Source of the DNA: Octopus sinensis
Taxonomy: Eukaryota
Assembly: GCF_006345805.1 (NCBI RefSeq)
Contig: NW_021834541.1
Coordinates: 1-47,396 of the forward strand
Reading direction: 5' to 3'
DNA length: 47,396 nt
The notes beneath the pieces were generated by a model. It ran no database searches. It saw nothing but the letters and a program-made list of their open reading frames with translations, and was not told the origin of the DNA. The position numbers and the translations under genes are program-made. Below, piece by piece: positions 30,201 through 39,200 of this stretch. The first letter of the stretch is position 1. Every line of letters starts with the position of its first letter.

Positions 30201-33200
30201 CCATAGATGTCACTACTGTCATGAGAACATGGCCACCGTGAGACTGCAACCATGTGGAGATCTTGTTCTCTGTGAGAAATGTTCTTCTGAAATGACATTT
30301 AAGAGATGCCCCGTGTGTCGAGAAAACACACTCAGCAAAAGTGAATTTGGTAAGATAATATTTGGGGCTCTGTTTGTTGTCTTGTTGACCTTATGGTGTG
30401 GAATAATGTGCTTCAAGCTTTTGTGTAGACCCAGGTAGGTCATAATGGGACAGATTTATGATAGGTGTTCCTGGGGTCTTTTCTTTGTGACAGTATATCT
30501 ATCACTATATCCACTAAATGATGCCTTTACCTAATTTTAAGATGTCACACTTCAAGATGTCTGTCATGATATGTTGTTTAGGTACGTACCCTGAATGTCT
30601 CTTTAGGTACGTACCCTGAATTATAAGAAATTAACAAGATTAAAAATCAAATCTCTAAGATTATAAGTATAATGATCATTAACGTTGATTAAATATCAAA
30701 TTTAGTATTGAACGGTGAACATGTTTACATTTAAACAAAATATTGGTGTTGACATACAATACAAAGATAGGAATTAAATATGAGTTCCCTGTGTGACTTG
30801 ATCTCACAAATCCTTATTTGTAATTATATATAATATACACTTATTACATTGTTTGAACAACATTTACCATCCATATAGTCATTCTTTTTCTCACTCTTGT
30901 TAGATTTTAGATGATATTAATGCTAAAAGAGGCACAGTTTTCTGAGTGTTTCACCCTTTGGTCTTGATTGTTGCGTTCAAATTATTTAATGAAAGATAGT
31001 CATTGTTATTTGACCAGGAAATTAATTAATGATTAGTATTTGGCAGTGGACTTGGTTATATCTTTCTTCGTTTGCTCATGGAACTACCATAATATTAGCT
31101 GTGCTGAGACACAATCATATTCATAGTAATGAAGGTTATATGTTCTTTACTCAGATTATATACAATCTATATTGATATCTAGTATTGCACCGTCAAGCAC
31201 AGTGCCATTGTATCACATATATACCCAATTATCATGATAATTAATAAGCTATAATTCATTAACTCTCTTACATTTGTATGTCTGAAATGTAAACATATTT
31301 TGCCATAGGAACATCGTGTACCCTCACCTTACATTTTATATCTTGTTAGGGATCATGTTGGTGAAGGGTGTATGGAATTTGGCTTGTGGAGATGTTTTTC
31401 AGGGGACAGATTGTGTGCAGAGTGGAGGGTATGCACATAAAGGACATGTCTTTATGGGCTCAGTTTCACTTAATTAGAGAGGAATGTTGATTAGTGAATT
31501 CTAGAGATGAGAGGACTGTGCCATGCCATAGGTTTGGCAGAGTTATAAGAAAAGAAAGACAAAGCTAAGAGAAAACTGTTATCAAGTGTTAATTAAATGA
31601 GATAATTGGTACATTGTTAGAATATTTAATGTGTTTTTAGAGAGAGAGAGATAGAGAGAGGGGTGGATTTAGAGATGTTAGTCTGTTTTATTGTGGACAT
31701 ATTGAGCTATTACATGGGACCACTGTAGAAAGTACAGAAATATTGACCAAAACCATAATGGTCAACAGTTGACCAGTAACGACAGGAAGTGAATGTCTCA
31801 CAATAACAAGATAGTTTAATAAAAATAAAGATGAAGAAAGTTTATTATTAAATGTAAAACTTGGAAATATTTATTTCAGAGGCTCCAAAGTTTGAGGACA
31901 GGTGTGTACAAACAGAGGCTACATGTCAGGAATTAGGGGCTGCATCTCAGGCAATTGGTGAGTATAAAATAATAGTTCCCAATTGATTTCTGTAAGGTTT
32001 TCTTCCCCCGAGTATATTGTGCTTGAAAGAATAACTGAAAACAGCTTCCTTTCCTAGTTTCCAATTGAACAATTATCTGTATAATAATTGAATTAAAGAT
32101 ATCGATTTACTGAGAGTTTATGAAATACCCATTGAGGTTAATGCTGTTGGTAATAATGTTCAAATTAGAAGACACAATAGAATTAATTTTGTCATTTGGT
32201 CACGGAACTCATCATCATCATCATCATCATCATCATTATCATCCTCCTCCTCATCATCATCGTTTAACGTCCGTTTTTATAGTAGCATGGGTCGGACGAT
32301 TTCACTGGCAAGGCAGTAGGCTGCGTCAGGCTCCAATGTGATCTGGCAAGGTTTCCACATATGTATGCCATTCCTAACGCCAACCACTCCGAGAGTGTGG
32401 TGGGTGCTTTTTACGTGCCACCGACACAGAAGCCAGTTGAAGTTGGGGCTGGCATTGACCACGTTCTGATGGTGTTTTTTACGTGCCACCGGCACAGGGA
32501 ACCGGTCGGGCGGCACTGGCAACAAACAATGTTTGAATGGTACTTATTATGTGCCACCGGCACAGGTGCCAGCCAGGCGGCACTGGCACCGGCCATAATT
32601 ACAATTTGCATTTTGATTTCGATCTTGTTTTGATTTTGATTTGTGATTTCTGATTTTTGGTTTTACTTGACTCAGAAATTCTTCTCAAGCGCAACTTATC
32701 ACTCTGTGATTCAAGGGTACTTTTAAAAAGGGCTGGTTATGTGACACTGGTATAGGCTACAGCTGTGATCTCACTTCACTTGCCGGGTCCTCTTAATCAC
32801 ATCATATTTCCAGAGGTCTCTGTCTCTTGCCATTACCTCTGTGAGGCCCAACGTTCGAAGGTCGTTTCACTACGTCATCCCCTGTCTTCCTGGGCCACTC
32901 CTTTCCACGGGTTCCTTCCACTGTTAGGGTGCAACACTTCTTCCCACAGCTCTCCTCATCCATACCATAACCATACCAGTGCAGTTGTCTCTCTTGTACA
33001 CCACATCTGATGCTTCTTATGTCTAACACTTCTCTCAGGCCTCTTCACTCTGCCTTGTGTGCACACCGACATCGTTGCGTTCAAATTATTTAATGAAAGA
33101 TAGTCATTGTTATTTGACCGGGAAATGAATTAATCATTAGCATTTGGCAGTGGACTTGGTTATATCTTTCTTCGTTTGCTCATGGAACTACCATAATATT

Positions 33201-36200: not shown

Positions 36201-39200
36201 AAATATCGATGTTCATTAAAGAAATTTTACTATAAAGTATAATCTTGGAAATATTTAATTCAGCAAGGCCAATATTTGAAGACAAAGAGGTCCAGACAGT
36301 GGAAGAGCCACGTGGTGAGTATAGAATGACATTACATAATTGATTTCTATAAATTTTAGCTTTTACTGAGCTATTTTGGTCAATAGAATGACCGAGAACA
36401 GGTTCCACTGCTACATTTCATTTGAATGCTTAGCTATAAAAAAATTCTGTTCTTCTACAACAACACGAATATCCAATAAATGTACTTTATGCAAACATCA
36501 GTTACTCATTCACTCGCAGAAAGAAAGATACAAAAATTAAATATAAACCCTGAAACGGTTCTCTCCCGTTAAGGAGAATATTCGCCCTGTTTGTCATCTC
36601 ATTGTACTCATTCATTCTCTCTCTCTCACTCATGCTCTTTCTCTCCGTCTTTTCAAGAAAGATGCTGGTTAAAAGTTTCAATACAATAAATGATATCATC
36701 CTCATCCTTTCTCATCTGCTCTCCATGCTCCCATACACTAGGTGGGTCATCACTGTCCATGTCAGTTGTATCTGAAATTACTGCCAACCGTCATTTGTTG
36801 AGGAAAACATCTCACTTAAACATTGCAGCTTTTCTAAGGTGGTAGACCCTTTCTAACCCCAACCATTTTATAAAGGGTCCTGGGTATATTTTATTGTCGT
36901 ACAGGCATTAGAAATGATAATCGATTTCCCAACAATATCAAACGTTCCTTTCAAATTTGTGGTGTCATCTTTCCTAGTTTCCACCAACCACTTCCTAGTG
37001 TGTTCTGGGAGCCTTTAATTATAGCACAAGTAGTAATCAAGTTGTGTTACATTCTACATAATTAGACGGTCCTCACTACTCTATGATGTTTTGGTTCACT
37101 GAAGCTGATGACATTTTCAGGAGGTGAGAAGGGAATGTGATGACAAAAGAATCAGGTTGCGGGGAGAGAAATTTTCCATACCCCCTCTCCCGGCTGTGGG
37201 GTCTTTGTCTTACATGTCTTTTGGCTAAATATGCCAGTACTTGTGCTTTATAAAAAGGGGCCACGTACACTCTGTGAGGTGGTTGGCATCAATAAGAGCA
37301 TCCTACCATAGAAAACCATGCCAAAGAAACCATCTGGGGCCTGGTGCAGTTGTCTGGCTTGTCAGATCCTGTCAAGATTTCCAAGCCATTCCAGCATGGA
37401 AAACAAACTTTGAATGTTGATGATGATGATGATGCTGTCTTCCAGTAACTCATCATAATTCTTTGTCTTCGATTGTTACAGTAATTTCCTGTCTGGTATA
37501 ACATATTAGCTCAGTATAATAATATCGATTGTGGAAACCGATTCAGTGATTTTGATAACATTCATATTGAACAGAGAACATATGTTCACATTTGAACAAA
37601 ACATTGATGTTAACATATGCAATACATGGAAAGGAATGAACGTATGAGATTCCAGTGTGACTTGAACTCACAACACTTTTCTAACTATATATATATAATT
37701 ATCGCTTGTTACGATGTTTGAATAACGTTTACTGTCCATATATAGACATCGTTATACTGACAATTGTTGGCTTTGAGATGGTTTCAATTGTAAGAGAGTC
37801 ACTGTTTTCAGTCTTTCACATTTTGGTTTTACTTCCGACTTGATTGTTATGTTGAAATTAGATCATGGAACCTGGTCATTGTTATTTGACCAAGAAAAGA
37901 ATTCATCATTAGTATTCGGTACTGGAAATGGTTACATTTTTCTATGGTTTCTCATGGAACTACCATAATATCAACTGTGCTGAGACACAACCATATTAAT
38001 TGTAACAAATGTCACATGTTCTTCACACAGATTTTATACAATCTATATTGATAGTTAGTGTTTAAACGCCACATTAACATGATAATTAATCAGCTATCAT
38101 TCATTAACTCTCTTAAACTTGTCTGTCTGGAAGTTTCATAGCATTATCTTGTACCCTCATCTGATATTTTACACCTTGTTACCCTCAAAGTTAACATAAC
38201 TTTTACATGGGTACACAACCACATCCCTACGAACTAGTTTTTACAGCTGTATGCCCTTCCCACAATAATAAAGTGTTGATTATCAATAACTATAATGAAA
38301 TTATACTATAAAACGTAAAACTTGAAAATATTCATTTCAAAGACTCCAACTTCTGTGAAGGATGCCTTGACAACATCACAGCCAGTTGGTGAGTAGCAAA
38401 TAACAGTACCTCATGGATTTCTATATCTTTAACCTTCACCTGAGCATTTGTAGTTTATCAGAATGACTGAGGACATTATCCATTCCTAATTTACATCTGA
38501 AATATTAGCTGTATAATAATTCTATTAGACATTTTGATATCAATGGAATTTCACAAAATATCCAATGGGGTTGGCATGGTTCGGAAAATGGATAATTTAG
38601 AAGACAATAGAATTAATACTATATTTTGAAACGGAGGACTAAAATATGTAGTTACTAAGTTTACTGATAGGTTATTGCTGTTGTTGCTATTTAGGCAAAT
38701 ATCTCTCATAATGTGACAGATTTACAATGAAATGTGTTCCGTATGTGAACACCCTGCCTTTTTTTTCACTGATACTAAATTTATCATTACATCCCCTAAA
38801 TATTGTCTTTATCCATGTAAAAGCATTAGGTTTGATGTTGAGACAACCGTTCTCTCTCTCCCTCTCTCTCCAAGATAGACACTGATGACCCTCATCATTT
38901 ATCATCTGATTGTCTATGCTCCTATCGATTGGATGGATGATTCCTATCCATGTCAGTTCTTATTAACAAATACTGTCCGCCTTGATTGGATGAGGAACAC
39001 ATTCCGGCTTTTCTATGGTGATGTGCCTTTCCTAACATCAACCACTTTAAAAAGGGCCTTGGGCACAATTTTGCTCCAAAAGCCCTAGAAAAATGATCAT
39101 GTCGTCAACAAAATTAAACGCTCCTCTTTAACTTCTACAAGGGAATTCTGTTTGCAGATACTGAGAACAGAAAGCTAAAATACAATAAAGATGAACTGGA

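Follow-up and report, generated by a model that had tools for sequence, protein, structure and literature searches.

Tandem linker exons with predicted LC8 docking motifs in an octopus ankyrin-RING-death-domain gene related to Mind bomb 2

Several multivalent clients of the dynein light chain LC8 (DYNLL) are known, among them ASCIZ/ATMIN, Chica/FAM83D and Bassoon (PMC6607443, PMC5963919, PMC10046861). The stretch of Octopus sinensis DNA analysed here (NCBI RefSeq assembly GCF_006345805.1, contig NW_021834541.1, positions 1 to 47,396, forward strand; the whole 47,396-nt stretch is called the window) carries an octopus relative of Mind bomb 2 (MIB2), an ankyrin-RING-death-domain gene with an uninterrupted frame, in which three short exons between the RING and the death domain, A, A2 and B, each encode one predicted LC8 motif. 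Like the known clients, the octopus array has several glutamine-anchored motifs, in a region predicted to be disordered, combines sites of predicted high and low strength and spaces them by a few tens of residues. It differs in that each motif occupies its own symmetric exon, likely derived from a folded domain, in that the motif count varies by paralogue and isoform, in having VQT rather than TQT anchors, and in that the predicted client is an ankyrin-RING-death-domain protein.

Two further systems invite comparison. Exon clusters of the Dscam type consist of tandemly duplicated exons that are spliced in a mutually exclusive manner. The octopus exons are likewise homologous, of the same phase and tandemly duplicated together with their intron flanks, but they are joined serially (A>A2, A>B), which yields a repeat count instead of a single choice; these joints, and proteins with multiple A units, are at odds with the rule of one cassette per transcript. 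In human MIB1, the coiled coil and terminal RING form the unit that drives dimerization, and ubiquitin transfer requires it; ANK-RING1-2 is inactive and for the most part a monomer (bioRxiv 10.1101/2024.03.01.582834). The octopus family shares with MIB2 and MIB1 the ankyrin array and RING1, matching an octopus MIB2-type gene exon by exon, but continues after RING1 with the motif-bearing linker and a death domain, and the death-domain exon is present in more than 100 genomic copies.

On balance, we favour the view that the linker exons are in-frame cassettes, each contributing one predicted LC8 docking site, and that LC8 dimers would pair chains upstream of the death domain. Matches of family proteins (tblastn), splice ends and translation define one open frame of 11 exons from 3088 to 42721, comprising 450 codons and a stop, and its 3' part is laid out as follows.

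30207..30349, + strand: RING exon of the C3HC4_3 type (Pfam PF13920, E value 1.7e-10), homologue of the first RING of MIB2
30967..35672, + strand: recent tandem duplication with a period of about 2.1 kb, detected by self-BLAST, source of A and A2
31880..31957, + strand: linker exon A, 78 nt, phase 1-1, EDRCVQTE; AG/GT ends; joint 30349>31880 in run contigs
34007..34084, + strand: linker exon A2, 78 nt, phase 1-1, EDRCVQTE; AG/GT ends; joint 31957>34007
36264..36314, + strand: linker exon B, 51 nt, phase 1-1, EDKEVQTV; AG/GT ends; joints 31957>36264 and 36314>40885
38341..38388, + strand: unit C, a 48-nt homologous exon remnant without the motif; acceptor AA, not AG
40885..40956, + strand: death-domain exon 1, 72 nt, phase 1-1; identified by flank alignment, self-BLAST and flank tree
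42522..42721, + strand: death-domain exon 2 with the stop codon; Pfam Death E value 0.15, below cut-off

Exons A, A2 and B lie where the original prediction had placed them, with AG/GT ends, phase 1 on both sides and one motif each. The residues identical between A and B are, as it had also claimed, mostly those of the motif, namely P(-8), F(-6), E(-5), D(-4), V(-1), Q(0) and T(+1); at the DNA level only 23 of the first 41 nt agree, and E, V and Q are preserved via synonymous codon changes. The three exons lie between the RING and the death domain, with glutamines spaced 26 residues apart and the last of them 7 residues upstream of the death-domain exon. A2 departs from A at 4 of 78 bases, and the tandem duplication that holds them is 93.4% identical over 2639 columns, introns included (self-BLAST). 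As near-identical products of this recent 2.1-kb duplication, they count as a single motif origin. An assembly artefact was excluded by the 93% identity with insertions and deletions, by the A>A2 joint in three runs and by a corresponding pair in the O. vulgaris protein P0002. The array as first described was incomplete, since the flanks of C (38341-38388) and of death-domain exon 1 are homologous as well, and the label 'micro-exon' does not suit it, as the usual size limit for micro-exons lies below 78 nt.

Unit C is likely not spliced. No joint involving it was found among the run-contig joints listed, and a shifted acceptor, giving a 46-nt exon, was rejected because it disrupts the death-domain frame. 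A C-like segment is coding in the O. bimaculoides protein P0036. Copies of C are very similar across paralogues and have the AA acceptor in those parsed, a family-wide exon loss. Across 54 family proteins, which are related, so that draws are not independent, [KR]x[VTSIM]QT has 46 occurrences in the linkers (2617 residues) and a single one in the remaining 16745 residues.

The published rules for LC8 motifs place Q at 0, buried residues at -1 and +1, a large or basic residue at -3, a polar one at -4 and D, E or P at +2 (PMC6607443). The motifs fit these rules as originally predicted, A fully and B except at +2. VQT in A, A2 and B agrees with the anchor pattern (Q at 0; T, V, S or I at -1; T or V at +1), D-R-C and D-K-E provide a large or basic -3, a polar -4 and no bulky aromatic residue at -2, internal proline is absent, and E occupies +2 in A and A2, which thereby satisfy every position rule. 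V(-1) is present in six binders of Table S4, and the known binders there include EDKGVQCE (gephyrin), SDKGVQTP (ZFPM1), EDKATQTL and GSKSTQTV; weak motifs bind when several are close together (all PMC6607443). Sister exons of the octopus family read EDKGVQTD, KDKETQTQ, EDKASQTE and EDKHVQTD, and the gephyrin and ZFPM1 binders are near-identical to sister exons. Motifs of the TRAF, SUMO and caspase types (judged by eye) are not preserved across exon types.

The linker is predicted to be unstructured: the AlphaFold model of the close paralogue P0011 has no secondary structure there and a predicted local distance difference test score (pLDDT) of about 30, in a model from a shallow alignment in which the RING also falls below 50. 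A canonical 89-residue LC8 is encoded in the octopus genome (G000:C25, L091:1489-1755). The genome searched (G000) contains 22 dynein light chain family matches, among them intronless LC8 paralogues 76-79% identical, which could differ in motif preference. Complex prediction with two octopus LC8 chains and two A-exon 31-mers scored 0.01 in both runs against a mark of 0.34, with controls that were unfolded and peptides outside the calibration, and so speaks neither for nor against binding. Judged from its sequence, exon A alone probably binds LC8, a prediction in which we have reasonable confidence.

Selection on the motif was assessed by pairwise comparison of present-day copies, using 126 different linker exons of 51, 54, 72 or 78 nt together with their flanks (C, frameshifted copies and other lengths excluded) and sorting them into 13 or 19 lineages on flank distance alone. 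In the five motif codons, positions 1 and 2 differ at 0.24/0.23 (13/19 lineages) compared with 0.41/0.39 in the flanks (p about 0.005), other codons differ at 0.37/0.38 and third positions at 0.44/0.45; for motif codons versus other codons, p is 0.06 with 13 lineages and 0.014 with 19. Where one lineage of a pair has the pattern K/R-x-V/T/S-Q-T, the other has it too in 0.50-0.54 of pairs versus 0.04-0.05 under a neutral estimate, an approximately tenfold excess; the estimate presumes a star-like tree and well-aligned flanks and could be biased by gene conversion. Lineages that are mostly motif-intact number 8 of 13 and 11 of 19 (rough binomial p about 0.001). Most of the excess conservation is due to K(-3) and Q(0), with some from V(-1) and little from T(+1). 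Third codon positions from -5 to -1 vary freely (0.47-0.68), and the constraint therefore acts on residues.

The motif is preserved in the cross-species pair P0045/P0059, and one O. bimaculoides gene carries as many as five dissimilar linker exons, with K-x-V-Q-T-V in four of them. Among the splice- and frame-intact linker exons, 60/133 match [KR]x[VTISM]Q[TSV] and 37/133 the strict form, and the motif is intact in 47 of 60 distinct recent A copies. Preferential conservation, which had been put forward for the motif, is thus borne out in old lineages and in O. bimaculoides and fails in recent A copies and in the many copies that have lost it. The sequences point to old constraint with frequent recent loss, as expected of redundant or tunable sites and equally of partial decay.

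The source of these exons can be sought in their surroundings. A, A2, B, C and death-domain exon 1 have common acceptor and donor flanks (flank alignment, self-BLAST), and a flank profile run over 100 stretches and the window returned 278 units. Linker exons make up 163 of the 272 that were parsed and first exons of the death domain 81; the others are 23 copies of C and 5 death-domain copies in decay. In a flank-only tree, linker and death-domain exons are intermingled, with weak deep support. The linker exons are likely tandem copies of death-domain exon 1; because this tree is poorly resolved at depth, we infer the direction and the number of origins. Several linker exons with the 72-nt length of the death-domain exon read EDKGVQTD, EDKHVQTD, EDKGVQSD or ENKEVQTP, and retain that length and the motif, not other sequence. 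Aligned in the motif register, death-domain exon 1 has E(-4), K(-3), L(-1), V(+2) and A(+3), with one subfamily reading EEKCLQDV; L(-1) is conserved at 100%, V(+2) at 97% and A(+3) at 93%, and T(+1) never occurs. In linker exons the corresponding values are 83-87% for K(-3), 73-77% for V(-1), 85-87% for Q(0) and 59-65% for T(+1). Helix 1 of the death domain would already have provided E/D-K at -4/-3, and in the exon copies L(-1) would have changed to V, T or S, Q(0) become fixed and T(+1) mostly been gained as the helix-core constraint was lost.

Within the family, A units of C229 and C27 (18.13 Mb) are about 97% identical to those of the window (L074-L077, L118; G000:C229, C27, C11175), and the death domains of the same genes are only 55-62% identical to the window's over the matched part; linker modules appear to move between subfamilies by recent recombination. 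A second exon type, beginning with C-P-x-C and mostly without the motif, is found in P0070, P0072, L082, L084 and L085, with some copies 150-170 bp apart. In P0070 and P0072 the RING exon lacks the last CxxC, the first C-P-x-C-type exon gives a CxxC a few residues later, and this exon possibly completes the RING.

Motif number varies across the family. Walking upstream from the death domain in 20 genes gave A-type exon counts of 0 to at least 6 per gene, and the B donor is CT in 8 of the 12 B-bearing genes and GT in the window gene. Database proteins contain up to four A units, and the annotated O. bimaculoides isoform models XP_014776758/763/764 have 4, 3 and 2 K-x-V-Q-T-V motifs in otherwise unlike exons. 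Contigs from sequencing runs contain the joints RING>A, A>A, A>B, A>death-domain exon 1, B>exon 1 and exon 1>exon 2, each falling on the predicted GT..AG ends; the joint-bearing contigs come from 6 of 8 runs and five studies, and among the matches listed for runs X15 and X10 no exon joints were seen. Within-gene skipping is suggested by the database isoform models; the B-skipping joint may come from a paralogue without a usable B. Of the proposal that exon number tunes LC8 valency, the variation of motif count among paralogues and annotated isoforms is supported, and the part concerning skipping draws on those models.

A number of observations weigh against LC8 docking as the function of these exons. 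The motif is missing from 73/133 intact linker exons, and 7 of the 20 genes have no usable intact motif exon, compared with three such exons in the window gene. T(+1), a buried anchor, is conserved at 0.35-0.43 versus a neutral 0.34-0.37, and P(-8), which is not part of the motif, is also conserved (0.55-0.61). Q(0) is gone from 12/60 recent A copies, where the change Q>K needs four events on the tree, at least three of them forced by strong branches, and nonsynonymous variants in 59 copies (one internally frameshifted copy removed) amount to 7 on 11.7 motif sites (0.60) versus 16 on 46.7 sites elsewhere (0.34), both counts being small. B has Val at +2, outside the D/E/P rule; Val here is called unfavourable, the similar peptide VDRSIQTV is a non-binder, peptides ending in QTV in Table S4 comprise one binder and three non-binders, and just 7 of 19 well-scoring predicted peptides bound LC8 (PMC6607443). 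K(-3) and E/D(-4) come from the death-domain helix, which makes the motif less improbable. The joint-bearing contigs derive from runs guessed to be RNA or unlabelled, with joint sides of mostly 22-32 letters, and differ from the window locus at the fixed sites 30273 and 30279, so that they document the family and not the window gene.

With these points weighed, LC8 docking in the linker is still the most likely account. LC8 dimers would dock on the motifs of two parallel chains and thereby pre-pair their death domains, replacing the lost coiled-coil dimerization module, and pre-paired death domains would lower the threshold for oligomerization once the ankyrin repeats meet their ligand. Valency would be set mainly by genomic gain and loss of exons and by point loss of an anchor or splice site, and probably by exon skipping too.

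The alternative that survives best, although we think it unlikely, is that the exons are spacers, decayed copies of death-domain exon 1 that set the distance between RING and death domain or drift near-neutrally, the motif being a by-product of helix 1 plus one ancestral change. That over half of the intact linker exons lack the motif agrees with this, as do the absence of motif-specific constraint in recent A copies and the many dead splice sites (C acceptor, B donor in 8/12 genes, E-type donor); the EEKCLQDV subfamily of death domains (E-K-x-L-Q-x-V) is already two residues off the motif, and homologous flanks favour unequal crossing-over irrespective of function. A spacer does not readily explain why motif codons are conserved across old lineages while adjoining codons and third positions diverge like introns, why position -1 is mostly V, T, S, M or I, which occur in LC8 clients, or why K-x-V-Q-T-V is preserved in independent O. 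bimaculoides exons.

Restraint by LC8 is less probable still. As has been described for Bim and Bmf, LC8 could here bind but stiffen the linker or tether the protein and hold the death domains in an inactive pair, with the Q>K copies as release variants. This draws on the same sequence evidence as LC8-mediated pairing, and the activity of ASCIZ drops with rising LC8 occupancy (PMC5963919). Recurrent anchor loss in recent copies would fit selection for weaker restraint, and decay equally. The motif array, however, occupies the position of the parent's dimerizing coiled coil, which favours a replacement dimerizer over restraint, and death domains generally signal by clustering. It is very improbable that E/D-K-x-V-Q owes its conservation to a splicing enhancer, to modification of the lysine or to some other linear-motif partner. 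In favour of such a constraint, T(+1) is the least conserved anchor, the VQM, VQA and VQS exon types keep K, V and Q, and two A bases close to the 5' end of the exon hardly vary in linker and death-domain exons alike, but the free third positions put the constraint on residues and the joint pattern D/E-K/R-x-V/T/S-Q-T is close to the LC8 rules.

The C-terminal domain was identified by a Foldseek search with the model of a close paralogue, in which the RIPK1 death domain is the top match (probability 1.00, TM score 0.74, E value 0.014). The first 12 matches listed are all death domains, with those of RIPK1, RAIDD, PIDD, TRADD and FADD in front, none with an E value below 0.001; Pfam Death gives 0.15 in the window gene and 0.0035 in P0036, both below cut-off. 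The octopus domain shares the fold of these proteins, but at only 18-25% identity and with an upstream part derived from MIB. In mammals, MIB2 has been linked to RIPK1 (PMC5912950). From this link and the architecture, the family members are probably immune or cell-death adaptors. A closely related death domain ends an adhesion G-protein-coupled receptor of O. bimaculoides (P0100), after a repetitive Ser/Thr/Gln linker.

The upstream exons tie the gene to Mind bomb. The 5' end of the gene lies outside the window, and 3088..3241 is the first exon found.

3088..3241, + strand: first ankyrin-repeat exon found; tblastn of family proteins, AG/GT ends, open frame
12305..12459, + strand: ankyrin-repeat exon; family-protein tblastn, AG/GT ends, open frame
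13437..13473, + strand: 37-nt ankyrin exon; weak tblastn match (E value 0.046), AG/GT ends, frame-preserving
17647..17853, + strand: ankyrin exon; its paralogue counterpart shares 47% identity with an exon of the single-copy MIB2-type gene at G000:C26
21301..21479, + strand: last ankyrin exon; its paralogue counterpart is 54% identical to the G000:C26 gene

A candidate 38-nt exon near 28042-28079 is superfluous, as the frame is open without it and it has no family-protein match. Family proteins match the single MIB2-type gene of G000:C26 exon by exon, at 46-54% identity, over its last ankyrin exons and its first RING. In that gene, RING1 is followed by a coiled-coil-like stretch and a second, terminal RING; the octopus family has the ankyrin array and then RING1, lacks the coiled coil and the terminal catalytic RING, and the window frame ends in the death domain. 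PF06701 (MZM/REP region) appears in none of the family proteins' Pfam lists and has 9 genomic matches.

Scoring of 150 of the 152 candidates in G000 gave 129 matches to the last exon, some of them possibly haplotype duplicates or pseudogenes. The protein relatives that carry a name are 'MIB2-like' models from Octopus. Word-index protein searches returned Octopus matches only (37 and 78 hits), and an exhaustive profile search gave 76 hits, of which 10 were identified, nine from Octopus and one from Argonauta; in the Argonauta protein the death domain is present and the ankyrin-RING part was not seen. An ankyrin-RING query for full-length MIB parents gave 3 uninformative hits, and the parent was located in G000.

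The RING of the window gene ends in C-P-x-C-R, as in the IAP RINGs of the PDB, and Asp replaces its His zinc ligand, as in 8 of 74 family RING matches. Because this RING corresponds to the first of MIB2, the coiled coil and terminal RING are gone and Asp stands for His, ligase activity of the window protein is doubtful, which weakens the earlier suggestion that motif number tunes it. Death-domain signalling is the more likely output, rather than ubiquitin transfer.

Repeats also occur elsewhere in the window. A 3-kb GAT/GAG trinucleotide array fills positions 1-3012 at the contig start, and an intron at about 4380-9600 holds a frameshifted retroelement, which we take to be Penelope-like; its frames resemble reverse transcriptase and GIY-YIG, and an end segment is repeated. 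A perfect 228-nt inverted repeat with a 6-nt spacer lies at 3882-4343, and related arms at about 22255-22496 and 23829-24068 surround an insert of 1.3-1.6 kb; together these are probably a non-autonomous DNA transposon family.

In the literature searched, which took in few subscription papers, we found no precedent for an expanded offshoot of octopus MIB2 that carries arrays of one motif per exon derived from a death-domain exon, no description of the octopus gene family and no LC8 control of a RING-death-domain protein. Tentatively, an octopus-specific set of more than 100 immune-type receptors may have replaced the Mind bomb dimerizer with a countable LC8 ladder made of copies of the death-domain helix-1 exon, in which exon gain, splice-site death, Q>K changes and skipping would set the threshold, from 0 to 6 or more dimers. 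Even without binding, the exon history is a clear case of linker growth by exon exaptation. If LC8 binds, the family would record the traceable birth of a short linear motif from the exon of a folded domain, with intermediates and decayed copies in one genome, and would offer a natural series of 0 to 6 or more motifs for LC8 valency control of a death-domain switch, pointing to how a very large family of octopus genes may work.

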